64,000 nt of DNA from Chitinophagales bacterium (GTDB lineage: Bacteria; Bacteroidota; Bacteroidia; Chitinophagales; UBA10324): positions 2,009-66,008 of the forward strand of contig JBBQJW010000017.1 of the NCBI GenBank assembly GCA_038326325.1, read 5' to 3'. How positions within the stretch are numbered: the stretch's first letter is position 1; the number at the start of each line of letters is the position of its first letter. The position numbers and the translations under genes were made by a program. The notes beneath the pieces were generated by a model. The model was not told where the DNA came from, did no database searches, and saw only the letters and a program-made list of their open reading frames with translations. Of the stretch, positions 2,288-57,625 are shown piece by piece.

Positions 2288-5200
2288 ATGAAAAAAATTT
2301 TATTTCTACTCCTCTCACTTTTCACTTTTCACCTTTTATCATTTACCTCCTTCGCACAGCAAACTTTTCCAGTAAACGGAACACACGATTTGCGTGAAGG
2401 AAATTTCGCGTTCACTCATGCGACTATCGCCGTTGATTACAAAACAATGTTGAGTGATGCTACTCTTTTAATTCGCGATGGAAAAATTGAAGCCGTTGGA
2501 AATAATGTTTCCATTCCAACAGGTGTAACAGCGATTGATTGCAAGGGGAAATTCATTTACCCTTCGTTCATAGATTTGTACAGCAACTACGGAGTTTCTT
2601 CAATAGAAAATAAAAGTGATGGCAACAGACGCGGTCCGCAATTTCTTTCAAATAAATCAGGGGCATACAACTGGAATCAGGCGGTGATGCCAGAAGTAAA
2701 TGCTGCGGATAATTTTTCGGTCGATGAAAAACAATCTGAAAGTTATCGCTCGCTTGGTTTCGGCGCGATGCTCGTTCAGCGTTTCGATGGAATCATGCGC
2801 GGCACTGGTGCAGTAGTGCTTGCAGGAAATGAAAGTGATAACGAAATGTTGCTGAACGAGAAAGCCGCCTCATGTTATTCATTTAGCAAGGGAACGAGTA
2901 CGCAGGATTATCCTTCGTCGCTCATGGGTTCCATCGCGTTACTGCGACAAACTTTTTACGATTCGCAGTGGTACAAAGCGGGTGGTGATAAGGAAGAAAA
3001 AAATATTTCGCTCGATGCATTGAACAATCAGTTATCTCTTCCACAAATTTTTCAGGTGGATAACGACCTCAGCATTTTGCGTGCAGATAAAATCGGTGAT
3101 GAGTTCGGAATAAAATTTATAGTCAAAGGTGCGGGCGATGAATACCAACGGCTGGATGAAATAAAATCTACGGGCGACGCACTCATTGTTCCAATCAATT
3201 TTCCGAAACCATATAATGTTACAGACCCTGATGATGCGGAAATAATTCCGCTATCAGCGCTCATGAATTGGGAACAGGCACCTGCTAATCTTTCACGAAT
3301 TGATAAAGCAGGAATCACTTTCTCAATTACAAAACAAGGATGCGGCGATGATGACTTCTGGAAAAATCTTCGCAAGGCCATTGAATACGGATTGAATAAA
3401 TCCGACGCGCTCAAGGCGCTCACTTACACTCCCGCTCAACTTTCAAATGAATGGAACGAATTGGGTTCGTTAGAAAAAGGAAAACTCGCCAACTTCATCA
3501 TTTGTTCAGATTCTATTTTCAATGAAGAAAATATTATTTATCAGAATTGGGTGAAAGGAAAAGCATACCAGGTGAATGACGAAAAAATTTCTTCCCTCAA
3601 GGGAGAATATTCTTTCACACTGAACAGAATGAGTGATGTAAAGCTCACGATTGAAAATCCTTCTTCGAATAACGGAGTGTTACAGTTTCATGATTCAACA
3701 AAATCAGATGTGAAGTTTTCGTTGAACGACAATTTGATTTCTCTTAACTTCTCCATGCCGAATGATTCCACCAAACAATTGTATCGGGTGAATGGATTTG
3801 TTGAAGGGGGAAATTTTTCAGGAAAAGGTTTAGACCCGAACGGAAAAGAAGTGGTTTGGACGGCAACCAGAAGCGGCGATGTCCAAGCGAAAAAAGATTC
3901 CTCAAAAAATAAAAATGAAAAACCAGTTTTCGGAAAAGTAGTTTATCCGTTTGATGGTTATGGTTGCGATACATTACCAAAACAGGAAACTGTTCTGTTC
4001 AAAAACGCGACGGTGTGGACGAATGAAACTGACAGCATCCTCCTCAACACTGATGTACTAATCTCCAATGGAAAAATTCAACAGATAGGCAAAAACATTT
4101 CCGCTCCCGCAGGTGCGCGCATCATTGACGCGACAAATAAATTTCTTACAAGCGGAATCATTGACGAGCATTCGCACATCGCGATTTCGCAGGGAGTGAA
4201 TGAAGGAACACAATCCGTTACAGCTGAAGTTCGCATCGGCGATGTGGTGAATTCTGAAGACATTGATATTTACCGCAACCTCGCGGGCGGAGTCGTTTGC
4301 TCGCATCTGTTACACGGCTCAGCGAATAATATCGGCGGACAAACGCAACTCATAAAACTTCGCTGGGGTTACGCTCCCGAGCAAATGAAATTCGCGGGAT
4401 GGACGGGCTTCATCAAGTTCGCGTTGGGAGAAAATGTGAAGCAAAGCAACTGGGGCGACTATAACACTTCGCGCTTTCCACAAACAAGAATGGGTGTCGA
4501 GCAGAATTTATTCGACGCGTTTATCCGCGCGAAGGATTATGAATTGAAATGGAATACTTATAACAATGCAAGTCATTCTTCAACGAAAAATAAAACTGTT
4601 ACAGCCGAAATCCTCCGCAGAGATTTGGAATTGGACGCGCTCGTTGAAATTCTGAATGGAAAAAGATTCATCACTTGTCATTCTTATGTCCAGAGCGAAA
4701 TCAATATGCTCATGCATGTGGCGGACAGCATGCATTTTCAGATGAACACCTTCACGCACATACTCGAAGGATATAAAGTCGCCGATAAAATGAAGGCGCA
4801 TGGAGTATACGCCTCTACTTTTTCCGACTGGTGGGCTTATAAGTATGAAGTGTATGACGCGATTCCTTACAACTCCGCCATACTCACGAAGGTAGGGGTG
4901 GTGACCGCTGTGAATTCTGACGACGCTGAAATGGCGCGCCGATTAAATCAGGAAGCTGCGAAGAGCATCAAGTACGGAGGACTAACAGAAATGCAGGCGT
5001 GGAAACTCTGCACTCTCAATCCGGCCAAGATGTTACATGTGGATGATAAAATAGGAAGTATAAAAGTTGGAAAAGACGCCGATGTTGTTTTGTGGAATGC
5101 GAACCCGCTGAGTGTTTACGCGAAACCCGAGTACACTTTTGTTGATGGCGTTTGTTTTTTTAGTCTGCAATCTGATTTACAAAAACGCGATTTCATTCGC

Positions 5201-5351: not shown

Positions 5352-6647
5352 ATGAAAAAAATATTCTCATTACTTCTCTCTCTTTTCGTTTTCAGTGTTA
5401 CATACGCGCAAACAATTCCTGTTGCACCGCCGCAGGATTCAATCATCATTCTGATGAATGGCATTGCCCATTTAGGAAATGGTGAAGTGATTGAAAATTC
5501 CATTATCGAAATTGTGAAAGGAAAAATTGCAATGATTGGTGATGCGCGAACAATCCGATTAGAAAAATCAAATGCAAAAATCATAAACATCTATGGCAAG
5601 CATGTGTATCCCGGATTGATTGCGTGTAACAGTAATTTAGGACTGAATGAAATTGAAGCGGCTCGCGCCACACGCGATGCGAACGAGGTTGGTGATTTCA
5701 ATCCGAACATCAGAAGCATCATCGCATACAACACAGATTCAAAAGTGATCGCGACTGTTCGCTCCAATGGAATTTTGTTGGCGCAGGTTGTTCCGCAGGG
5801 CGGAATTATTTCAGGTTCATCTTCTGTTATGCAACTCGACGCGTGGAATTGGGAGGACGCTGCTTACAAAACCGACGAAGGAATTCATCTCAACTGGCCC
5901 TCGTACTTCACCGCGCATTTTGACAATCCCGATGGCGGAACAGTTGGCTTGAATGAAAAATACGTGGAGCAGGTTCAGAACATTCGAAATTTTTTCGATG
6001 AAGCGAAAGCGTATTCACAAACTGTTACACACGAAAACACGAACCTGAAGTTCGAAGCGATGCGCGAATTGTTTTCCGGGAAGAAAATTTTTTTCATTCA
6101 CGCGGATGGCGTGAAAGAAATTACCGGGGCGGTGCTTTTCGCAAAATCTTATAACATGCGATGCGTGATAGTTGGTGGTAGCGACGCATGGAAATGCACT
6201 GATATTTTAGTCGCTAATCATGTGTCGGTGATACTCGGTAGAATTCAATCGCTGCCAGGTTCAACGGATGATGATTATGATTTGCCCTACAAAACTCCGG
6301 CGCTCTTGAAAAAAGCGGGAGTAGATTTTTGTTTGAGCATGGATGGTTTCTGGCAGCAGCGCAATCTTTCTTTTCTTGGCGGAGAAGCGATTGCTTACGG
6401 AGAAATAAGTAAGGAAGAAGCGCTGCGATACATCACTTCAAATGCTGCGCGCATTCTTGGAATTGATAGTGTAACAGGAACTCTAGAATCAGGGAAGGAC
6501 GCGAACATTATAGTGAGCGATGGAGATATTCTCGACATGAAAACCAACAATATCATTTACGCTTTCATACAAGGTCGGGAAATAAATCTCGACGACAAAC
6601 AAAAAGACTTGTATGAAGTTTATAAAGCGAAGTATGGAATAAAATAA
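5352..6647 (+). CDS. secreted amidohydrolase family protein
   Basis: Signal peptide MKKIFSLLLSLFVFSVTYAQ and a C-terminal GTLESGKDANIIV motif. The start is set at the ATG at 5352, because the track start at 5292 overlaps the upstream gene. Confidence 0.75.
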   Translation: MKKIFSLLLSLFVFSVTYAQTIPVAPPQDSIIILMNGIAHLGNGEVIENSIIEIVKGKIAMIGDARTIRLEKSNAKIINIYGKHVYPGLIACNSNLGLNEIEAARATRDANEVGDFNPNIRSIIAYNTDSKVIATVRSNGILLAQVVPQGGIISGSSSVMQLDAWNWEDAAYKTDEGIHLNWPSYFTAHFDNPDGGTVGLNEKYVEQVQNIRNFFDEAKAYSQTVTHENTNLKFEAMRELFSGKKIFFIHADGVKEITGAVLFAKSYNMRCVIVGGSDAWKCTDILVANHVSVILGRIQSLPGSTDDDYDLPYKTPALLKKAGVDFCLSMDGFWQQRNLSFLGGEAIAYGEISKEEALRYITSNAARILGIDSVTGTLESGKDANIIVSDGDILDMKTNNIIYAFIQGREINLDDKQKDLYEVYKAKYGIK

Positions 6648-6956: not shown

Positions 6957-7101
6957 AATATTTGCTTTTGTTGCAGCGAATCTAATACAAGTGAACACGG
7001 ATTGAAACAGATTGAAAAGATTTTTCACGGATTAAAATCCGTCGTTATCAGTAGCATCCGTATGAATCAGTGTCCTATGAATTTTTATTTTCGCCCCCAC
7101 A

Positions 7102-9306: not shown

Positions 9307-9528
9307 CTGGTTACAGCTTTTTCGCTATGATAGCGCTATAGGATTAGTAATTGTTACGGTGTAACGGAATCACGCTTTCGATATAGTGTTGCCTGCGTGA
9401 GTGATTGTAGTGGAAATCATTTTTTGTGATTACACAAAAAATATTGAAACGAAAAGCACGACAGCATTTTTTTGAATACAAAAAAATGGTGGCACGCCCG
9501 ACACTTCGACAAGCTAAGTGTTACAGTG

Positions 9529-12639: not shown

Positions 12640-12751
12640 TTTTAAAAACTAATGGGCGAAAGATAAAAGGAAGAAGTTCGATTGAAAACGAGAAATGTTT
12701 TTCTCGCTGAAACATCGTCCGTTTTTCTCCGTGGCTCGTAATAACGGCGGC

Positions 12752-13774
12752 ATGGCATTACACGGTAAAATAATTTTTCGCGCTGATGGCGGGCCGAACC
12801 TCGGAATGAATCATTTGGTTCGTTGTGCAGCTTTAGCGGAAATGTTGCGCGAGCATTATGAATGCGTGCTGACGATTCGCTCTCCTAATCCGACCGCCTT
12901 GCAAATCATTGAAGGAGTTTTTCATTCCATTATTCCTTTGACCGTTACAGACCATTTTGATGGCGACGAATTGATTCCGCATTTACACGAAGGTGATATA
13001 GTGGTGATGGATGGGTTTCAATTTCACACCGCTTATCAGCAAAAAATTCACGCGAACAATAAACTTATTTGCATCGACGATTTGCACCAACATCATTTTG
13101 TCGCCGATGCCATTATTAATCACGCCGAAGGAATTTTGCCCGCTGATTATTCAACGGAAGAGTACACGCGTTTTTATCTCGGTTCTCGATACGCGATGAT
13201 TCGCGAACCATTTATTAACGCCACTCCGGAAAATCATGATTCGCAAAAATCAAATCGAGCGATGATTTGTATTGGAGGAAATGATATTCATAACACGACA
13301 TTAAAAGTGTTACAGTCATTAATTGACACAAAAACCGTAAATGAAATTGAATTGGTGGTGGGCAAACTAAATCCCAATCTCGATCTGATTAATGAATTTA
13401 TTCATTCGCAAAAGGAAATGAAAATTATGTTGTGTATGAATCTTCCAGTAAGTGAATTGTGCGATCTCATGAAGACTTCGCGGGTAATGATTTGTTCGGC
13501 GAATAATATTCTGCTCGAAGCGTGCGCGGCGGGTATGAAAATTATTTCAGGAATTACGCACGACGCTCAGCAAGGAGTGTTACAGGGGTTGGTCGCGAAA
13601 GGCGCGGTGAATAGTTGCGGAAATTTTTTAACCGCCTCGCCCGAAGAATTAAAATCGCGCTTCGAATTATTTCTGAATAACGATACTCATACTGTTACAC
13701 AACAGACCGCGCAACGCGAATTGATTGACGGGCTTTCGCCTGAAAGGTTGTTCGAGATATTCAGTAAGTTGTAA
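12752..13774 (+). CDS. PseG-like UDP-sugar hydrolase / GT28-type glycosyltransferase family protein
   Basis: The N-terminus IIFRADGGPNLGMNHLVRCAALAEML resembles PseG. The start is moved to the ATG at 12752. Confidence 0.45.
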   Translation: MALHGKIIFRADGGPNLGMNHLVRCAALAEMLREHYECVLTIRSPNPTALQIIEGVFHSIIPLTVTDHFDGDELIPHLHEGDIVVMDGFQFHTAYQQKIHANNKLICIDDLHQHHFVADAIINHAEGILPADYSTEEYTRFYLGSRYAMIREPFINATPENHDSQKSNRAMICIGGNDIHNTTLKVLQSLIDTKTVNEIELVVGKLNPNLDLINEFIHSQKEMKIMLCMNLPVSELCDLMKTSRVMICSANNILLEACAAGMKIISGITHDAQQGVLQGLVAKGAVNSCGNFLTASPEELKSRFELFLNNDTHTVTQQTAQRELIDGLSPERLFEIFSKL

Positions 13775-23281: not shown

Positions 23282-23863
23282 TCATTTTAAAATTCCATTT
23301 AAAAAAACTTCCGTCATCTGCTCGGCGATTTCTTCCGGCTGCATTTTCCCTTTCGGTGTAAACCATTCGTAAATTCCGTTCATCGCCGAGAAGATGACAA
23401 ACAGAGTAAGTTTTTCGTCCTTGATTTGAAAACTTTTTTCTTCAAATCCTCTTTTTAAGATTGATTTATAAAAATTCTCGTAGCGCCTTCGCATCAATTT
23501 GAAATCAGATAAGTAAGGCTCGCTTAAATGTCTCCATTCATGTAAAAACACAACAGAAGCATCCATGTTCGCGGTAATGATCCGGATATGTTCTTCAACA
23601 GCTCGCTTTAATAATTCTTTAGCGGAAAGATTTTCTTTTTGCAATTCATCCGTTACGGCAAAAAACTGTCGCGCCATATCAAAACAAATCTGTTGCAAAA
23701 TTTCTTCCTTTGATTTTATATGGCTGTATAAACTCGCCGCTTCAATTCCAAGTTCAGAAGCAATGTGTCGCATGGAAGTAGCGGCATAACCCCTTTCCCG
23801 AAATAAATTTCGAGCAGTATGGTGAATCTGTTCCTTTCTCTTTTTGATTGTTGCGGTTGACAT
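23282..23863 (-). CDS. TetR/AcrR family transcriptional regulator
   Basis: N-terminal HTH ARNLFRERGYAATSMRHIASELGIEAASLYSHIKSKEEIL. Confidence 0.85.
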   Translation of the reverse strand: MSTATIKKRKEQIHHTARNLFRERGYAATSMRHIASELGIEAASLYSHIKSKEEILQQICFDMARQFFAVTDELQKENLSAKELLKRAVEEHIRIITANMDASVVFLHEWRHLSEPYLSDFKLMRRRYENFYKSILKRGFEEKSFQIKDEKLTLFVIFSAMNGIYEWFTPKGKMQPEEIAEQMTEVFLNGILK

Positions 23864-23868
23864 CCTAA

Positions 23869-23882
23869 CTAACGGTCGTTAG
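23869..23882. promoter_or_regulatory. 14-bp palindrome CTAACGGTCGTTAG, candidate TetR operator
   Basis: Perfect 6-bp arms lie 6 nt upstream of the tetR start codon. Confidence 0.35.
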
Positions 23883-24117
23883 GCAAATATACAACGACAA
23901 TTCGGTATTCCAACAGAATTGATTGTAATTGGAAAATCCGGTGATATTGACCCCCTGAAACCGATTGAAACTGACCACCAAACAGGATCAACCTGACCAC
24001 CTTATTCCGCTCCAAATAAGCCATCTGTTTTATGATGTTCCGTTCTCGGGGTCTTTATGTCAGCGACGAATTCTTGCGCCTCGGGCGGAGAACCTGTCGT
24101 TTTAACCTTCATAACTT

Positions 24118-25938
24118 TCAAAACTTCACCACTTTCTCAACCCTAACACATCCATCATTCATTCTCAACTTCACAAAATAAACTCCGGCAGCAAGTGATT
24201 TAATATTTACTTGTGTTGTTGGTCTTTGAACTTTAAACTTTAAACATTGAACTCCTAAAGCATTTGTGATTTCTATTTCCTTAGGAGCAACTCCATTTAG
24301 CACTTCAATAGTTAATTCATCACTCGCAGGATTGGGGTAAACTTTAATTCCATTCACAATTGACAATTCACCATTCACTCCTGTCACATCCACAAACATG
24401 CAAGCCGATTGTTCATTGCAGCTATAGGCATCTGTTGCAATTATAGAGTAGTTTCCGGTTATTGTTACAATAAAAATTTGATTAGTTGCGCCGCTTATAT
24501 TTAAGCTGCTATCACAATTGAACCATTGATATGTTAAACCAACTCCGCTCACACTTGAAAAGAGTGTATCAGAAGTTGCACTTATTGATACTGTAACAGT
24601 ATCAACCGTAAGCAGCGTTGTAACTATGCTGTCGCACCCCGCATCATTCATTAATGTGTCAATATAAGTTCCACTTGTATAATACACACTGCTACCTATG
24701 TACAAAGTATCTCCTGCACATATTTTTTGTGAAGATGATGAAGTTGTATTTGTACAACTCAAAGTATCGCAAGGGCTTCCTATCAATGGCCCCAAATTGT
24801 AATTAACCATGTTCGGCAACCCATATCTGCATCTCATTCCATTTAAATAAAAATTATATGGTTGAACATTACATTCTATTCCATTACTGTCTGGATTATT
24901 AATTACTGTCAAGTACATGTTACAAGAATCATATGATGCGCAATCTGTAACAATATAAATTTTATTATTTGGCGCAAGTAGATGTTGTCCTATTAAATCA
25001 TCTGGATGATTGTTTGAATAATTATTCCATAATAAAGTTTTAGTCGATTGAATATTTGGAGAGTCGAGATTAAATTGATATAATTTATGTTCAGTTGAAA
25101 AGTAAAATTTTGAACCGTCTGATGAAAAGGAGCATCCATAACAGTTTGGGTCATTAGCCAAAAATATATAATTACTTATATCCCCTGAACATCTATCAAA
25201 ATTAAAAACTCCAACTTTGTGATTTAGATAGTCAACCAATCCTAATCTTTCACCAGATTGTGAAAATTTTAATTGACCTACTTGTATATTACTAAGCACT
25301 GGTCCAATACCTTGTATTACTACATTACTAATACCTGCTGATGTTACACGATATTTGTAAAAATTTTTACTGTCGTTTTTATGAACTACAACCCACCAAT
25401 CTTCCCCATTTCCGTGTTTTACTGCTGTAATTTTTTCAGAAACGATTGTAGAATCAATGAGTATATTTTTAATAACCAAAGCACCAGAATCATTATTCAT
25501 TGTTCTATCTATTATCCCATAATAGAATCCTGAATGTAATAAGTTGTTTTGAATATTGTTTGTGTAGAAGAGATAATACTTATTAGTATCGTTAGGAAAA
25601 GGGATAAATAACAGCCCCTGTGTATTTGATCTATTACTTGCAATACTATCGCCGTCTAATATTATTTTCCCATAAGAATTATAAACGGCAGAAATCTGTG
25701 GTGGATTTCCAAAACTATCTGACCCGCTCACATAAAATAATAAATTACCATTTCTTGTCGAAATTGAAGCATAGTTTTCATTACCATGACGAACTCCTAC
25801 TTGATTTGAAACTTGAGGGTTTCCAATGTTGATGAAATCAATTTTTACACTGTCATCAAAAACCCATACTCTGTCCTCCTTCTGAGCTAGACTCAGAAGA
25901 GGACAAAGTATGAAAAGCAATTTCAAAAAGACTTTCAT
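24118..25938 (-). CDS. secreted protein with a T9SS type A C-terminal sorting domain
   Basis: Has a signal peptide. The C-terminus VYPNPASDELTIEV...AGVYFVKLRMNDG...KVVKF is a T9SS CTD. Confidence 0.8.
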   Translation of the reverse strand: MKVFLKLLFILCPLLSLAQKEDRVWVFDDSVKIDFINIGNPQVSNQVGVRHGNENYASISTRNGNLLFYVSGSDSFGNPPQISAVYNSYGKIILDGDSIASNRSNTQGLLFIPFPNDTNKYYLFYTNNIQNNLLHSGFYYGIIDRTMNNDSGALVIKNILIDSTIVSEKITAVKHGNGEDWWVVVHKNDSKNFYKYRVTSAGISNVVIQGIGPVLSNIQVGQLKFSQSGERLGLVDYLNHKVGVFNFDRCSGDISNYIFLANDPNCYGCSFSSDGSKFYFSTEHKLYQFNLDSPNIQSTKTLLWNNYSNNHPDDLIGQHLLAPNNKIYIVTDCASYDSCNMYLTVINNPDSNGIECNVQPYNFYLNGMRCRYGLPNMVNYNLGPLIGSPCDTLSCTNTTSSSSQKICAGDTLYIGSSVYYTSGTYIDTLMNDAGCDSIVTTLLTVDTVTVSISATSDTLFSSVSGVGLTYQWFNCDSSLNISGATNQIFIVTITGNYSIIATDAYSCNEQSACMFVDVTGVNGELSIVNGIKVYPNPASDELTIEVLNGVAPKEIEITNALGVQCLKFKVQRPTTQVNIKSLAAGVYFVKLRMNDGCVRVEKVVKF

Positions 25939-26180
25939 CTTACAACAACTAATTTCTGATGGTAAACAGTTTTATTATTAAACGAAATTTTCAGTTGATA
26001 AATTCCTGCAACAAAATCAGAAGTAGTTATTCTCACTCTGTTTAAATCAGAGTATAGTAGCTGAGAAAAAACTTCTCTCCTCCCCCGCCGTGTCTCCCCT
26101 GCGATGGAATGAGCGATGCGTGACACGGTGGTTTCAAACGAACTTGCAACCTTTTTTAACCTAATCGAATTTTCCATCAA
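25935..26180 (-). pseudogene. remnant of a T9SS C-terminal sorting domain (orphan gene fragment)
   Basis: The 81-aa ORF ends ...DFVAGIYQLKISFNNKTVYHQKLVVVR, which is CTD-like. There is no signal peptide or mature domain, and the upstream 280 bp has no long ORF. Confidence 0.35.
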
Positions 26181-26484
26181 GTATATCGTAGAAATTTTTC
26201 AGCCAGAAAAAGCTTTTAAATCCTTCTTCATAAAATCCCGCACTTCAATGATTGTAGAGTAGGTAATCACTCACCAGATTCCATTTCTTGCTCACGGGAT
26301 TTTTGTGAATGTAGTTAAGTTTCTGCAACATCATTTCCTTCCGTCCGCGCCGAGTCATTCGCTGTGCCTTGCGCTATGCCTGAGGACTCGGCGTTTATTC
26401 CTTCACCACCTTCCTGACTGTTACACTTAACCCGCCAATATCGCACCTCATTTCTTTCACAACATAAAAGTAATCAATCCTCCA

Positions 26485-26520
26485 AAACAAAAAACCCCGC
26501 AGAAGAAACTTCCCGGGGTC
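26485..26520 (-). terminator. rho-independent terminator after the 26559-27467 gene
   Basis: On the minus strand GACCCCGGGAAGTTTCTTCTGCGGGGT is followed by TTTTTTGTTTT. Confidence 0.6.
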
Positions 26521-26558
26521 TTAACAAAACCTTCTAAACTTTCATAACTTTAAAACTA

Positions 26559-27467
26559 TTAAACCTTCTCCATCACCACGCTAACCTCCACACTGCCGCC
26601 AAGTGGTATTTTTACATTAGGCACTTTAGCGGGTTTAAAATCAGGATGAGTAAATACAAACGAATAAACACCACCCTTAAATTTACTGATTTGATAAACA
26701 CCTGTTACATCTGTCGTGGTCTTCAAATCAGTATTTGTTCCAATCATTTCCACCTGCATTTTAAAGATGCCGTCTCCTGTAACACTATCCGTTGCTTTTC
26801 CTTTTACCGTGGTATGTGTTTGTCCTGAATCTATCACCTCCTTAGCTGCAAAATAAGTATCATAAAAAACAGGTTCACTGCTGAGCAGTGTTTCAATAAT
26901 AGGAGTCATTTCATTTTTTATTAAATCCATTCCTTGTTTATTCAGCACCGGAATAAGATTCGTTTGCGCCATCCGGTCAGCAACCGCCTCCCTCGGTTGA
27001 TCTACCGAACCTTTATAATTAGTTATCGCTGTTTGAAAAGTAGTAAGCACCGGAGCGGTTATTCCATAATCAGCAAGCAAAAGAATCAATCCGTTGGCGC
27101 GGTCGTGCATAAACTGGGCAGTCTGTGGCAGCAAACCATCATCTAATCTTTTCAACTTCGATTTAGCAATACTTACCTCGTCAAAAAGAACAGCATCACC
27201 AATCACATGAGCGTATGCTTTCATGGCCGATGCAACCGAAAAAGTTTGGTTCACCAATCCGTCATGCAATTGTTGTTTGTTAACCGTTACACCCTTTATG
27301 TTTTTTCGCTGCGCAAGGTCTGCACTTTCTATGGCGGCGACCACTGCGAGCAATGCTGTTTGCGCAACTCCGAGTGCAGGTCGCAGAGCTACGACAGCGG
27401 CGTTCGAAGCCAGAACTAAAAGTACTGTTCCGAACATGTTCAACCGGTTTTCAAAATACTGTTTCAT
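26559..27467 (-). CDS. hypothetical protein: helical N-terminal domain + C-terminal CarboxypepD_reg-like beta-sandwich (paralog of 55219-56166)
   Basis: The C-terminus is GKATDSVTGDGIFKMQVEMIG...TTDVTGVYQISKFKGGVYSFVFTHPDFKP. The start is set at MKQYFENR (27467). Confidence 0.6.
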   Translation of the reverse strand: MKQYFENRLNMFGTVLLVLASNAAVVALRPALGVAQTALLAVVAAIESADLAQRKNIKGVTVNKQQLHDGLVNQTFSVASAMKAYAHVIGDAVLFDEVSIAKSKLKRLDDGLLPQTAQFMHDRANGLILLLADYGITAPVLTTFQTAITNYKGSVDQPREAVADRMAQTNLIPVLNKQGMDLIKNEMTPIIETLLSSEPVFYDTYFAAKEVIDSGQTHTTVKGKATDSVTGDGIFKMQVEMIGTNTDLKTTTDVTGVYQISKFKGGVYSFVFTHPDFKPAKVPNVKIPLGGSVEVSVVMEKV

Positions 27468-27598
27468 GATTTTTGGTTTTTGTGATGAATGAGTTTTTAA
27501 TGTCAGACCAAAACTACATTCACCAAAACCCTTTGCTGGCTTCACTCGCACAGAATCGCATTAGATTGAATAGATACTCATTAGGGTGAATGGATTTT

Positions 27599-28081
27599 CT
27601 AATCTTCTTCTTTTTTTTCTGTTGATTTATGATTGTGATAGATGTGTAGATAAACTCTCACCACTTGCTCGTATGTTTCTGAAACAGGTAAATATTTTCT
27701 GTTTTCCAAATGAACTCCATCCGGTTCCATATCATACTGAATCATAAATTCCGGGTTGAACATAAACGAATTATGATTTCGTATTAATCCCATCTGTGTT
27801 AAATCATTTTCAAGTTCACCAATGGTTTCATTGCGGCGATACTTCACATTTTTATGAAGTGTTACAGCATAAATGTTTGTTCCGTGCCCCTCGCTTTCAG
27901 CATAAATAATATCTTTTCCCTTTATAAAAACATAACCGCCGTCCGGGTGAATCACTGAAAATTTTTGAAAGCTGTTCTGGTGAGATTGCTTTTCAAATTG
28001 TTGCCTCAATAAAAGAGTTGCCTTCATAACCGAAGCGCGTTTAATTTGCTTCACTAAAGCAGCCCAGAACGAAAGAGGCAT
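27599..28081 (-). CDS. stand-alone LytTR DNA-binding domain protein (no receiver domain)
   Basis: IIYAESEGHGTNIYAV...ETIGELENDL...LIRNHNSFMFNPEFMIQYD...LENRKYLPVSETY follows the LytTR pattern. An alternative start exists at 28027. Confidence 0.7.
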   Translation of the reverse strand: MPLSFWAALVKQIKRASVMKATLLLRQQFEKQSHQNSFQKFSVIHPDGGYVFIKGKDIIYAESEGHGTNIYAVTLHKNVKYRRNETIGELENDLTQMGLIRNHNSFMFNPEFMIQYDMEPDGVHLENRKYLPVSETYEQVVRVYLHIYHNHKSTEKKEED

Positions 28082-28225
28082 GATGCATCACTTTCCCTTG
28101 TAACGCAATACTGGCGTAGTAAGTATGAAAATCACCGTCATTCTTTTGTCACAAAAAACAAGACAATTTGAATGTATTAAAAAATCAGCTTTAATCTGTC
28201 ACATCAGCGGCATCAGTATTCCGGT

Positions 28226-28560
28226 CAATAGCGACGGAAACCATCGCGAAAGCAAAGTAATCTGCCGAAACAACAAGGTAAGCGAAAACAATAGCTTCGG
28301 AAACAAAAGCAATGCTGTTGTCACTTGAAACAATGACGGGTAAGCGGAAGCAATAGCAGGTTAAACAAAAACAATAGCAAGGTAACTGACTGCAACAACG
28401 AGGTAAACAAAAACAATTGCATCGGAAACCATCTCGAAAGCAAAGTCAATCACAGAAACAGCGAGGTAAATAAAAACAATAGTGTCAGAAACAATCGCGA
28501 AGGCAATGTAAACTGGAGAAATGGAAGAGTAATTGAAATCAACAAAATAGGAATCACAAA
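28226..28560 (-). repeat. array of about 15 degenerate tandem repeats with ~21-bp period
   Basis: CAAT(A/G)GC anchors sit at 28289, 28310, 28331, 28351, 28372, 28393 and 28414. The minus-strand consensus is yTTTTGTTTACCtnGCTATTG. A higher-order duplication links 28235-28305 to 28423-28493. Confidence 0.8.
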
Positions 28561-28651
28561 TTCTATCGTGGTTTCTGCCCTCAAAAAAAATCATGAAACA
28601 ATATTTTCATTATCAATACTCCTTAATTACATTTGCGACGGATTAGTGATG

Positions 28652-28673
28652 AGGGGACAGTGTCCCCTTTTTT
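28652..28673 (+). promoter_or_regulatory. hairpin plus T-tract 4 nt upstream of the rimP start (candidate leader attenuator)
   Basis: AGGGGAC-agt-GTCCCCT followed by TTTTT. No plus-strand gene lies upstream for it to terminate. Confidence 0.35.
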
Positions 28674-28676
28674 ATT

Positions 28677-54380: not shown

Positions 54381-54752
54381 GCGCATGGTTTTGAGGGGGA
54401 CTGCGTATATCAATTTACTACACTGCGTATGTGAATTTACTGCGTTGCGTATTTTGATTTACGGCACTGCGTATTTGTATTTACTTCGGTGTGTATGCTC
54501 ATTAACCCCATTGCGTATATCTATTAACGCTATTGTGTAAAGCTCTTACTGTAACAGCGTATTATCATTTACTGCATGGCGTATTGTCGTTAATTGCATG
54601 GCGTATTGTTATTTACTATTGTGCGTATGATTCTTGACCGTATTGCGCATGTGATTGAGTGATTGTTTCTATTCAAATTAGTGCATAAGGTGTATACTAA
54701 TGTTTTCAGGGGCATATTTTCCTGACTGAATGTGTATTGTACGAATTCGTAC
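54381..54752 (+). repeat. array of about 16 degenerate tandem repeats with a strict 22-bp period
   Basis: G(C/T)G(T/C)AT anchors fall every 22 bp from 54381 to 54645 (54381, 54403, 54425, and so on). They continue roughly in phase at 54690, 54712 and 54732. The consensus is GCGTATnnnnATTTACTnnnnT. Confidence 0.85.
54739..54752. promoter_or_regulatory. perfect 14-bp palindrome GTACGAATTCGTAC, candidate operator
   Basis: It lies between the end of the repeat array and the start of the HTH gene. Confidence 0.35.
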
Positions 54753-54798: not shown

Positions 54799-55080
54799 AT
54801 GAGCGCTGACCACAACTTCTTAGTATCAATGCAAAAGCGGCTGATTTTCCTTCGTGAAAAAAAATTTATAACCCCAAGTGAATTTGGAAATGTGGCGAAT
54901 GTGAATGAGAGAAGAAATGAAATATATGCGCAAGACCTTAGGGCAACTTCTATCGGAAGAATTGTGATCTCACTTCAAATTGATTTTAATGTTAGTGAAT
55001 TAATAACTAAGGAAATGCTGATGAAATATGCCGATGAACTTGATAAGGAAGAACACGAAAGAGAGAGTAGAGGGGAATAA
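54799..55080 (+). CDS. small XRE-like helix-turn-helix protein
   Basis: KRLIFLREKKFITPSEFGNVANVNERRNEIYAQDLRATSIGRIVISLQIDFNVSELI follows XRE HTH spacing. The start is set at 54799 because the 54730 ATG lies inside the repeat array. Confidence 0.5.
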   Translation: MSADHNFLVSMQKRLIFLREKKFITPSEFGNVANVNERRNEIYAQDLRATSIGRIVISLQIDFNVSELITKEMLMKYADELDKEEHERESRGE

Positions 55081-55218: not shown

Positions 55219-56166
55219 ATGGCACTTTTAATCAGACCTGTTTACCGATGCACTCAACTTGAGCTGTATTCGACATTGAAAACCATTTGGGACAATTATG
55301 ATGACCATCAGGCGCAACTTGTTACTTACAAGAGTAAGTATGATGCTCCGCTGAGTGTTACACACAAGGGTGAAATTGCCGCTGCGAAAGCTTTGCCTGA
55401 CGAAGAAGCGCGAAATGCTGAATCGCAGAATCTTCGGATTGATGTAACAGCGCTTGGTCAAAAATGCACCCGCAACTGGCAACTATTGAAGGGATATATT
55501 GTGGAAGCTTATCCAGGGGCTAATCAGAAAGTACAGTTGGATGCAGCGGGGGCGGTTTACTATGTACCGGCATCGCACAGCAACTGGGAGTTTGTGGCGG
55601 GCATGAATTCTTCTGCAAACAATTTTATCGTTGCAAACGGTGCAGCATTATTAGCGGATGGTTTTATGCCCGCAGGATTTAAACTTCAATACAAAACTGA
55701 CAGCGATGCTTTTGATGTTAAGTATGATGAGTTTAAACATGCGCAACAATCGAGTGAGGGAACTGACGAGAAAATAAAAGCGAACAATAAAATTTATGAG
55801 GACAGCATGAAGATGTGCGCTGATGCAACAATGTTTTTTGTAACGGATGATTCGATAGTGAAGAAGTTTACTTTCACTACAGTGTTACAGATTGTTAGCC
55901 CGCCGGGGAGTGCAAGTTTGAAAATACAAGCCATTAACTTAGGCACTAATGAAATTATTGTTGGAGCGAAGGTGGTGATTCAGAAGGAAGGCAATGCTGC
56001 ATTGAACGGAATTACTGATGACAGTGGTGAAGTTGTTTTTCCGGGGATTGACCCGGGTGCTTATGATGTGACTATTGCCGCCGTTGGATATACTGCGATG
56101 AATTTCAGTAAGGATGTGAATACAGGTGTGAGTGCGCGAAAGGATGTGTTTATGACGGCGGTTTAG
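55219..56166 (+). CDS. hypothetical protein: helical N-terminal domain + C-terminal CarboxypepD_reg-like beta-sandwich (paralog of 26559-27467)
   Basis: The C-terminus is GAKVVIQKEGNAALNGITDDSGEVVFPGIDPGAYDVTIAAVGYTAMNF. It shares an LLAD.G...A....F.T segment with the other copy. Confidence 0.6.
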   Translation: MALLIRPVYRCTQLELYSTLKTIWDNYDDHQAQLVTYKSKYDAPLSVTHKGEIAAAKALPDEEARNAESQNLRIDVTALGQKCTRNWQLLKGYIVEAYPGANQKVQLDAAGAVYYVPASHSNWEFVAGMNSSANNFIVANGAALLADGFMPAGFKLQYKTDSDAFDVKYDEFKHAQQSSEGTDEKIKANNKIYEDSMKMCADATMFFVTDDSIVKKFTFTTVLQIVSPPGSASLKIQAINLGTNEIIVGAKVVIQKEGNAALNGITDDSGEVVFPGIDPGAYDVTIAAVGYTAMNFSKDVNTGVSARKDVFMTAV

Positions 56167-56204
56167 AAGAGTATCAAGTAGCAAGACGCAAGTATCAAGA
56201 TTTT

Positions 56205-56238
56205 AAAACCCCGAAGATTTTTTCTTCGGGGTTTTTTG
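56205..56238 (+). terminator. rho-independent terminator
   Basis: AAAACCCCGAAG-attttttt-CTTCGGGGTTTT followed by TTG. Confidence 0.8.
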
Positions 56239-56483: not shown

Positions 56484-56882
56484 ATGACAAATACGATAAC
56501 AAGACCAGCAGACAAACAAATCTTTGAAGGGATAATTGCTGACTATTATTTAGATGATGGTATTTTAGTTTCACTTTCAAAAAATCCCAAACGGACAGTT
56601 GAAAATATTACAAGCAATGTTGCTTTAGTAAAAAGTATTACCGACAACAAACCTGTTCCGCTTTTGATTTATCTTTCTGACTCTCCTATTCCAGACAAAG
56701 TGACACGAAAATTTGCGACTGAACAGTTACCAATAATTTATTCTGCAATGGCAATGGTTTCCAAACCTGGACTTTCAAAATTCATTATGAATATTTTGTT
56801 CAGTTTAAAGACACCACCGATACCAATGAAAAGTTTTACTGACGATAAAGCTGCAAAAGAATGGTTAGGACAATATTTATAA
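56484..56882 (+). CDS. SpoIIAA-like / STAS-domain-like hypothetical protein (cargo 1)
   Basis: 132 aa, ending ...MKSFTDDKAAKEWLGQYL, which is typical of STAS-like DUFs. Tentative. Confidence 0.45.
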   Translation: MTNTITRPADKQIFEGIIADYYLDDGILVSLSKNPKRTVENITSNVALVKSITDNKPVPLLIYLSDSPIPDKVTRKFATEQLPIIYSAMAMVSKPGLSKFIMNILFSLKTPPIPMKSFTDDKAAKEWLGQYL

Positions 56883-56963
56883 AAAGAATTAAGACAACAC
56901 AACTTCTAACAAACATTCGTGCTGACATCGGAGGACACATCTTCGGACGAACAGCACCACATG

Positions 56964-57115
56964 CAGCTAACATGAAGATAAATGCAAATTTTTAAAAGAA
57001 GGGCTTTGTACGGTAATCAAACAGTTGTGCATCTAACAAACATTGTAGGTTATCGAACAGTTGTGCTTCTAAACCCTTCTTTTAAAAACTTCATTTATCC
57101 CTTATGCGTTAGCTG
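56964..57115 (+). repeat. complete 152-bp imperfect palindrome with attC-like box layout
   Basis: The paired elements are CAGCTAAC / GTTAGCTG (8 bp), ATAAATG / CATTTAT (7 bp) and TTTTTAAAAGAAGGG / CCCTTCTTTTAAAAA (15 bp). The 70-nt centre carries the 17-nt direct repeat AACAGTTGTGCWTCTAA twice. Confidence 0.8.
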
Positions 57116-57187
57116 TAATGCTATGGCGACAGTGCTAACTTGAAACTTTCTGCAAGAAACGAACAGACAAAACCTTTAAACAGAACA

Positions 57188-57625
57188 ATGTTTGACGAAC
57201 TAAACAAATACGAACAACACGACCATTTCTTTTTAAAACCGCAAGACAGTTTGAGAGAAGTTTGTAACGCACCGACAAATAAAAGTGGTGTTTACATAGT
57301 TTACGCTTTGAAGAACGGAAAGGTAGAACTCATTTATATCGGCTGTTCAGGAAAAATACAAGCAGACGGTTCTATGTTCGTCAGAAAAGCGGGACTTGGC
57401 GGTATTAAAGACAGAATTGTAAACGGACACCAATTTGGAAAAATACCGAGACGAAAATCTTGGATAGCACAAATTGAAAAAGAAAATATTGAGGCGTTAG
57501 ACATTTATTGGTATTCAACACACAATCAAAAATATTCCGACTGTCCACGAATTTTGGAAAACAAATTATTACAGAAACATTTAGACATTTACGGACGACT
57601 ACCAAAGTGGAACAAGGAGTTATAA
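57188..57625 (+). CDS. GIY-YIG nuclease domain protein (cargo 2a)
   Basis: GVYIVYALKNGKVELIYIGCSG (GIY-N10-YIG), with a downstream Arg (IKDRIVNGH), Glu (RILENKL) and WN. The start is set at the ATG at 57188, because the track TTG start lies in the conserved leader. Confidence 0.65.
   Translation: MFDELNKYEQHDHFFLKPQDSLREVCNAPTNKSGVYIVYALKNGKVELIYIGCSGKIQADGSMFVRKAGLGGIKDRIVNGHQFGKIPRRKSWIAQIEKENIEALDIYWYSTHNQKYSDCPRILENKLLQKHLDIYGRLPKWNKEL

Follow-up and report, generated by a model that had tools for sequence, protein, structure and literature searches.

In the 64,000-nucleotide stretch of contig JBBQJW010000017.1 that we analyzed (hereafter the window), which originates from an uncultured member of the Chitinophagales, an array of tandem 21-bp units (array 1) occupies positions 28226–28560, in the spacer between a minus-strand open reading frame (ORF) encoding a stand-alone LytTR protein and the plus-strand gene rimP. 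Phased arrays with periods that are multiples of 21 bp were found upstream of members of one rare protein family in about 13 lineages, and the explanation that we favor, at a probability of roughly 0.4, is that array 1 constitutes a helically phased, DNA-level array of putative binding sites that controls the module downstream, composed of the LytTR ORF and a gene of that family.

Bacterial chromosomes seldom contain long arrays of binding-site-like units in exact phase, and the maintenance of a 21-bp phasing over those lineages, together with the persistence of cores in the units, would point to a conserved mechanism that reads both the spacing and a lineage-specific motif. The arrays provide, in addition, a point of entry to a protein family whose N-terminal fold is novel, and to the control of variable genomic islands beside core genes; and they raise the questions of which protein binds them and of whether array 1 affects the essential rimP-nusA-infB operon.

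Structure of the array

Array 1 is built of 16 tandem units, 21 bp long save for one of 20 bp, and three unit types alternate along it so as to produce a super-period of 63 bp. The unit consensus is AAtAGCaanGTAAaCnAaAgC on the plus strand and GcTtTnGtTTACnttGCTaTT on the minus strand, which is that of the genes; A2 and A13 never vary, and 14 of the 16 units have G10. The Tandem Repeats Finder program recorded the segment 28226–28515 with a period of 63, 4.6 copies, and 64% matches. Throughout 28226–28560 the self-identity was 0.49 at lag 21 (z 7.6 versus shuffles) and 0.54 at lag 63 (z 8.6 versus shuffles), while at lags 20 and 22 it was no higher than the background. The plus strand of the array is A-rich, with 156 A versus 49 T, and an independent Logan contig, from run X1, matched the segment 24238–30000 with zero differences.

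An earlier description of this DNA, made from the sequence alone (hereafter the original prediction), had proposed a phased repeat array in this spacer. The period tests, the 16-unit layout, and the stop codons in every frame corroborate that the array is real and helically phased, being the product of neither chance nor coding; and the location between the minus-strand LytTR ORF and the plus-strand rimP was likewise borne out, as was the higher-order repeat formed by 28235–28305 and 28423–28493, whose identity is 79%. The CAAT(A/G)GC anchors given in that description stood in part: the exact sequence occurs only at 28226, 28289, 28351, and 28372, the other positions that it lists holding degenerate versions (CAATGCT at 28310, CAATGAC at 28331, CAACAAC at 28393, and CAATTGC at 28414).

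A coding heptad repeat, to which a period of 21 nt, or seven codons, might correspond, was rejected upon the finding of stop codons in all six frames of array 1; the arrays at four of the loci to be described below (L081, L084, L096, and L100) also contain stops, and have no consistently open frame. Nor does array 1 represent a CRISPR (clustered regularly interspaced short palindromic repeats) array, since its units are contiguous and without spacers, or a set of transposon-end repeats, since matches to the unit profile cluster nowhere else in the window, in either orientation and with the left end of the island included.

Recurrence of phased arrays upstream of one gene family

Array 1 is separated by 758 bp from a downstream gene on the same strand that encodes a protein of 302 amino acids (aa; 26559–27467, minus strand), with the LytTR ORF—27599–28081, minus strand, 160 aa, the public call starting at 28027 and giving 142 aa—interposed as the gene that the array directly precedes. 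The 302-aa protein, referred to here as the family protein, consists of a helical N-terminal domain, about 215 aa long and belonging to no known family, and a C-terminal CarboxypepD_reg beta-sandwich. The use of LytTR homologues as a comparative handle failed, the LytTR protein being an orphan: its sole match among 5.8 billion clusters was itself, and its best non-self match among 1.84 billion representatives had an E value of 1.2e-8 and 26% identity. Homologues of the family protein were obtained through a metagenome scan with the family alignment, which furnished 26 loci, and through a profile search, which furnished 45 protein clusters, all of them unnamed; seven further homologue contexts were added to the survey, and arrays were detected throughout at a z of at least 7 in 168-nt windows.

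The first case was a homologue with 33% identity, at locus L081, which is preceded, at a distance of about 400 bp, by a 21-bp array of its own (11 units of CAnnATATCAAnnCGnnAGnT, z 8.6 at lag 21) and is accompanied by no LytTR gene. In all, arrays with a period of 21, 42, 63, or 84 bp were present within 1 kb upstream of the family gene at 17 of 33 metagenomic loci, to which two loci were added at a lower threshold and one more (L113) in which the array stands ahead of a three-gene operon ending in the family gene. Many of the negative loci had less than 300 bp of upstream sequence or contained the most distant homologues, and the closest homologues (P0060 and P0061) were on contigs of about 1.1–1.3 kb that include less than 170 bp upstream. 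The positive loci represent about 13 lineages whose unit sequences are unrelated, as exemplified by AAAGcnCATTTTCgngTCTGC in L089, TcagntnGTGGAAAGgnngcT in L101, aTCCGCGCgGGTGACAnAttc in L112, TCAAACTGCGTCTGCACCTCA in L085, and nnTTGCAnnnnnTGAAGnnnn in L113. When applied to 648 kb of control loci, the same detector gave two regions of period 21, and the sole non-coding array there was that of locus L044. Array 1, as a non-coding array of period 21n located upstream of a family member on the same strand, belongs to this class; and since we found nothing in the searchable literature on 21-bp arrays tied to this gene family, the class appears to be one of recurrent phased arrays hitherto undescribed.

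No motif was common to the lineages, the similarity between units in the same and in opposite orientations being equal (p 0.72). In the arrays of L101, L112, L113, and L114, the mismatches are confined to a few columns and the cores are invariant (p ≤ 0.001); and among L112, L115, and L116, whose proteins are 69–77% identical, the core GCGnGGGTG is kept and the spacers differ. In array 1 itself the column heterogeneity was marginal (p 0.066), so that selection on it is undemonstrated, and the functional claim consequently rests on the array class rather than on array 1.

These comparisons bear on the possibility that array 1 is a neutral minisatellite: a functionless repeat generated by slippage, carried in with its island, and now decaying. 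The low proportion of matches among its units, that marginal heterogeneity, and its strain-specificity are in keeping with such an origin, as is the different number of units in L084 and L085, whose proteins are 97% identical. The arrays, however, recur upstream of one gene family in about 13 lineages, with unrelated units and periods that, almost without exception, are multiples of 21; the control sequence contained few of them; and the invariant cores of the other arrays have survived a protein divergence of 25–30%. On balance, we consider a neutral minisatellite decidedly improbable.

In L113, the array, a methylase gene, an MvaI/BcnI-type endonuclease gene, and the family gene follow one another on one strand, from 1898–2247 (the array) to 6975; the first of those genes encodes an arm-type DNA-binding domain fused to the methylase. 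This restriction-modification pair occupies, between array and family gene, the place that the LytTR ORF has in the window, so that genes can evidently be interposed there. The L113 array contains no MvaI or BcnI restriction sites.

The tie of the arrays to the family gene is strong, though not exclusive. The non-coding array of L044 (257–445; about nine units of CTTTTAyCTkCACACAAyTTC) lies directly upstream of a gene for a Cro/C1-type helix-turn-helix protein (549–872; Pfam HTH_26, E 3e-6). In L114 the family gene lacks an array, yet two arrays are present elsewhere, at 3694–3923 and 12677–13052: a 21-bp array of gTgGGAGAgacaAtAAGTTGa upstream of a beta-helix gene of the type IX secretion system (T9SS), within which array an AtAAGTTGag stretch fits the LytTR consensus, and a 42-bp array flanked by an AraC-type regulator gene on one side and a GH130 gene on the other. 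The neighbors of the family loci are often defense genes or T9SS cargo. In the spacers of L084, L085, L104, L105, L112, and L115, which are otherwise unrelated, a AATGTTAA(G/C)C-like motif, often following an A-run, is located 60–100 bp upstream of the family-gene ATG; this motif might represent an operator, or else a promoter read by an alternative sigma factor.

A proposed DNA-level array of binding sites

The constant spacing together with the lineage-specific cores argues for sites that are read by a sequence-specific protein assembling on a single face of the DNA. According to the mechanism that we propose, the arrays would be a recurrent cis element of 8 to about 30 short sites spaced by exactly 21 bp—that is, two helical turns—often with super-units of 42, 63, or 84 bp, and placed 50–500 bp upstream of genes of the rare family inside variable genomic islands. 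Each unit would offer a short core to be read by a sequence-specific protein, while the 21-bp phasing would align all the sites on one helix face and so allow cooperative binding, in the form of a filament or a wrap. The bound array would then set the activity of the adjacent promoter or promoters, in the window those of the module formed by the LytTR and family genes, and possibly also that of rimP, whose promoter is 45 bp past array 1.

An upstream DNA element is favored over a transcribed repeat because of that same combination of constant spacing and lineage cores, the lack of a terminator, and the positions of the −7 boxes. A scan for a hairpin plus T-run at 19 loci disclosed no consistent intrinsic terminator between array and gene, and in the window the minus strand had none. 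In L113 a −7 box separates the array from the gene that follows, and in L100 such a box is situated at the array's 3′ edge; the only one found at the window locus, a Bacteroidota-type box (TAGTTTTG, 27509–27516, minus strand), lies past the LytTR stop and 49 nt upstream of the family-gene ATG. On the strength of this match to the consensus, the family gene appears to have a promoter of its own.

The same observations must be set against an RNA-level array; namely, a transcribed leader or a separate RNA whose 21-nt units would bind or inhibit a protein, in the manner of the ToxI repeats that precede toxN in type III toxin-antitoxin and abortive-infection systems. The likeness to ToxI/ToxN is considerable in certain respects: the repeats are in tandem on the same strand directly upstream of a protein gene, although in the window the LytTR ORF is interposed; the unit length is kept while the sequence varies among lineages; and the neighborhood is that of a defense island, as attested by the restriction-modification pair in L113, a D12 methylase in L101, Mrr in L083, a methylase plus HATPase_c_3 in L112, and DUF87, an SMC-like ATPase, HNH, and a nuclease in L111. 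What separates the arrays from that model, in addition to the absent terminator and the promoter boxes downstream of the array, is the lack of an RNA fold: a structured RNA was rejected upon folding z values of +0.55 and −1.35 on the two strands of array 1, and Rfam 15 gave no array-1 match at the gathering score, the best hit (E 0.87) being outside the array. Known antitoxin repeats measure 34–45 nt, so that units of 21 nt are shorter than those. No toxin of the ToxN, AbiQ, CptN, or TenpN type emerged from the PADLOC, Pfam, NCBIfam, and fold searches, and the family protein is acidic and matches no PADLOC model. We thus regard an array acting as RNA as improbable.

The period of exactly two helical turns would also suit a structural DNA element without a specific binder, whose bends would add up to a curvature that affects the promoter or the nucleoid proteins. 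In a wedge model of curvature, the predicted compactness of 12 of 17 arrays exceeded that of about 80% of the locus in which each lies—those of L089 and L101 being extreme and array 1 falling at the 12th percentile. Since the other five of the 17 (L081, L092, L096, L100, and L110) are not predicted to be curved, shape alone does not explain the arrays; and a curvature would require no invariant sequence cores. This structural role seems highly unlikely to us.

Certain findings nevertheless weigh against the DNA-level binding sites that we prefer. With respect to array 1, the units are degenerate (64% matches) and without a relative of their own, the column heterogeneity is the marginal one given above, and no promoter could be placed for the LytTR gene, the only −7 boxes being those with one mismatch inside the array. 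With respect to the class, neither the conserved neighbor nor the spacers disclosed a binder common to the loci: a regulator gene between the array and the family gene is absent at most loci, the small regulator genes sought in the array-to-gene spacers yielding none that was convincing; and similar arrays in L044 and L114 stand upstream of unrelated genes. The family protein, for its part, is the only conserved neighbor, and has no DNA-binding fold in the fold searches as well as an acidic character, with a median isoelectric point of 5.35 in the N-terminal domain and about 4.1 in the C-terminal domain.

That the phased array and the helical/CarboxypepD_reg gene should together form a new island-borne module, with passenger genes between the two (the LytTR ORF in the window, the restriction-modification pair in L113), we deem rather unlikely. 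If such were the case, the array would be a working part, serving for instance as a nucleoprotein scaffold, as a sensor, or as repeat RNA, instead of an ordinary operator, and the module might be a new defense-island or island-boundary system.

The AlphaFold2 model of the family protein, with a pLDDT (predicted local distance difference test) of 93, displays a helical bundle and a beta-sandwich, and the N-terminus of the family consensus is amphipathic rather than hydrophobic; as modeled, the protein would be soluble. In the fold searches only the transthyretin-like C-terminal domain was matched: the N-terminal domain had no match in the PDB (best E 0.39), and does not belong to any Pfam, PHROG, PADLOC, or NCBIfam family.

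The LytTR protein as a candidate binder

The LytTR domain was present without a receiver, as the original prediction had stated: the Pfam LytTR match (E 7.7e-9) covers residues 50–142 of the 160, and no second domain was found. By virtue of its position directly downstream, the protein is a tentative candidate for the binder of array 1. The 21-bp period does fit the direct-repeat spacing of LytTR sites, but array 1 contains 16 units and not one pair; and to take that spacing as signifying LytTR is an attractive, albeit too narrow, reading of the raw sequence. A general link between LytTR and the arrays must be abandoned, for the other array-bearing loci lack LytTR in both the gene tables and the upstream spacers, and the LytTR protein is consequently not the general reader of the arrays.

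The LytTR family consensus is said to be that of Nikolskaya and Galperin in 2002, [TA][AC][CA]GTTN[AG][TG]. In the form WMMGTTNRK, this consensus had no match in 28226–28560 on either strand, and the 71 matches across the whole window were at the level expected by chance. The repeats of known operons may also diverge from the LytTR consensus (PMC6193735).

Comparison with known systems

Array 1 would work most like the upstream repeat regions of LytTR proteins or of RemA, or like iteron and ParR arrays, but lacks defining features of each of these, and of the type III toxin-antitoxin systems as well. LytTR sites are direct repeats 12 bp apart in which the spacing is conserved rather than the sequence; and in the LytTR regulatory systems of the HdrRM/BrsRM type one repeat pair, with a separation of 12 (11–13) bp, is located about 10 bp upstream of the −35 element, with a gene for a transmembrane inhibitor adjacent downstream (PMC6193735). 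The window resembles those systems in having a receiver-less LytTR regulator next to direct repeats, with a 21-bp spacing that is conserved over the sequence; but differs from them in the 16 units of array 1, with no mapped promoter and no consensus match, in a downstream protein that is modeled as a soluble helical bundle plus beta-sandwich and not as a membrane inhibitor, and in the occurrence of equivalent arrays elsewhere without a LytTR gene.

RemA, which is small and LytTR-like, binds in oligomeric form to degenerate, repetitive DNA that lies far upstream of promoters, and probably wraps it (PMC8481266). Array 1 is similar to the RemA regions of the Bacillus subtilis eps and tapA genes as poorly conserved repetitive DNA upstream of promoters. 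RemA, by contrast, is of a different protein family and its sites are not long arrays of exact period, whereas in our arrays an oligomer is only proposed.

Iterons and ParR centromeres are formed by tandem units of 17–22 bp on one helical face, located upstream of the binder's operon and bound cooperatively. An origin of replication or a centromere-like partition site at the end of an integrated element would accordingly explain the unit size and phasing of the arrays, as well as the A/T-rich stretches that follow many of them and the circumstance that both arrays of the window—the second is described below—lie at an island edge beside a core gene. The locus is nonetheless chromosomal, the conserved neighbor acidic, and the island at 23892–28580 devoid of Rep, Par, integrase, or transposase genes, with no inverted copy of the array at its other end; and the family was absent from the plasmid, phage, and viral-contig collections PLSDB, INPHARED, and IMG/VR. 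The change of sign in GC skew at 28 kb simply tracks the gene strand, by which argument a chromosomal origin was rejected as well. An iteron or partition site is therefore the most remote of the explanations weighed here.

The nearest unexplained parallel is that of the TAACTGA heptamers, which are intergenic tandem repeats, likewise unexplained, with a patchy distribution among the Beggiatoaceae, Cyanobacteria, and Bacteroidetes (PMC4679880). Both types of repeat are in tandem upstream of genes; the heptamers, however, are of fixed 7-nt sequence and adjoin start codons, whereas the present arrays have 21-bp, lineage-specific units and are 50–500 bp upstream.

The second array of the window

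Array 2 (54381–54752, plus strand), of about 12 units of 22 bp (ATTtACtnCAtTGCGTATnntn), begins 13 bp past the recO stop. This array is directly followed by a small ORF of 93 aa (54799–55080, plus strand), for which no family was detected, and by the gene for a 315-aa protein (55219–56166, plus strand) with a C-terminal CarboxypepD_reg domain (Pfam E 7.9e-9). The view that arrays 1 and 2 are of one kind of arrangement is supported by the genes that follow each on the same strand: first a small ORF, and next a gene whose product, of about 300 aa, ends in a CarboxypepD_reg domain.

The motif that the two arrays had been supposed to share did not survive comparison. In ungapped cyclic comparisons of the unit profiles, the uncorrected p values ranged from 0.02 to 0.48 depending on the length, and thus did not go beyond chance; in the alignment only a T-rich stretch and TTTAC were in register, the half-sites being spaced as TTTAC-N3-GCTAT in array 1 versus TTTAC-N6-GCGTAT in array 2; and the array-1 profile had no matches of at least 9 bits inside array 2. 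The supposition that a DNA-binding protein adjoins array 2 also found no support, the 93-aa ORF containing no detectable DNA-binding domain. With respect to the 21n arrays, array 2 has the same gene order and C-terminal domain, yet a 22-bp period; the N-terminal domain of its protein has no detectable homology with the family, and the C-terminal domain alone aligns to the family profile.

Past the gene for the 315-aa protein is a strong terminator-like hairpin (56200–56235), beyond which, at 56484–57625, are a DUF7793/SpoIIAA-like gene and an unassigned ORF of 161 aa, in a second variable region. Tandem heptamers were also found near CarboxypepD_reg-type genes: AGTAGCA, 4.3 copies, at 56170–56199 of the window; ACTAGCA, 4.4 copies, at 5846–5876 of L081; and CTCATAC, 7.6 copies, at 7084–7136 of L083. 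These heptamers recall the unexplained TAACTGA repeats of some Bacteroidetes.

The genomic island and the rimP side

Comparison with the loci L001–L007 by blastn and alignments delimited a strain-specific island of 4.7 kb between tetR and rimP (23892–28580) that contains a T9SS cargo gene, a small ORF with a T9SS tail, the family gene, the LytTR ORF, and array 1. In the closest relatives tetR (23282–23863 in the window) adjoins the rimP region. The spacer between the two is variable, with a small GNAT acetyltransferase gene in L001, L003, and L007 and nothing in L002; the counterparts compared with the island were 2905–3422 in L001 and 3357–3438 in L002. Contigs from the runs X2–X5 had 96–100% identity from 28581 rightward, and the end of the GNAT gene on their left side. 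Array 1 forms the outer edge of the island, with 20 bp separating it from the right junction and about 45 bp from the −33 region of rimP, and was acquired together with the island. Upstream of rimP neither an array nor a LytTR gene was present in any of 80 relatives, whose NusA is 69–95% identical.

The −7 box of rimP (TACATTTG, 28628–28635) is the sole perfect Bacteroidota −7 box in the spacer. After this box the rimP leader comprises a G+C-rich hairpin at 28651–28669 and then a T-run up to the rimP ATG (the hairpin plus the T-run extending over 28651–28675); the box, the hairpin, and the T-run are nearly invariant across L001–L007, and look like a leader attenuator of the rimP-nusA-infB operon, possibly a NusA-dependent one. 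Because the conserved box and hairpin are downstream of the array, array 1 is not in the rimP leader. The idea of a rimP-nusA leader or NusA-binding RNA, suggested by the CAAUAG motif, was rejected for that reason and upon the absence of the array from the 80 relatives. The assignment of array 1 to the minus-strand genes, as originally made, and not to rimP is upheld by the same conserved promoter.

At the other end of the island, the T9SS-secreted cargo protein has 606 aa (24118–25938, minus strand; Pfam Por_Secre_tail, E 4.5e-12). Overlapping the start of the cargo gene is an 81-aa ORF (25935–26180, minus strand) that matches Por_Secre_tail weakly (E 0.003) and might be what is left of a further T9SS cargo gene. 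A palindrome, CCTAAC-N8-GTTAGG (23863–23882), immediately precedes the tetR start codon; it is conserved in both L001 and L002 and probably serves as the TetR operator. Elsewhere, a Flavo-1 RNA (Rfam RF01705, 58 bits) at 9386–9467 on the plus strand was the only match in the window at the Rfam gathering score.

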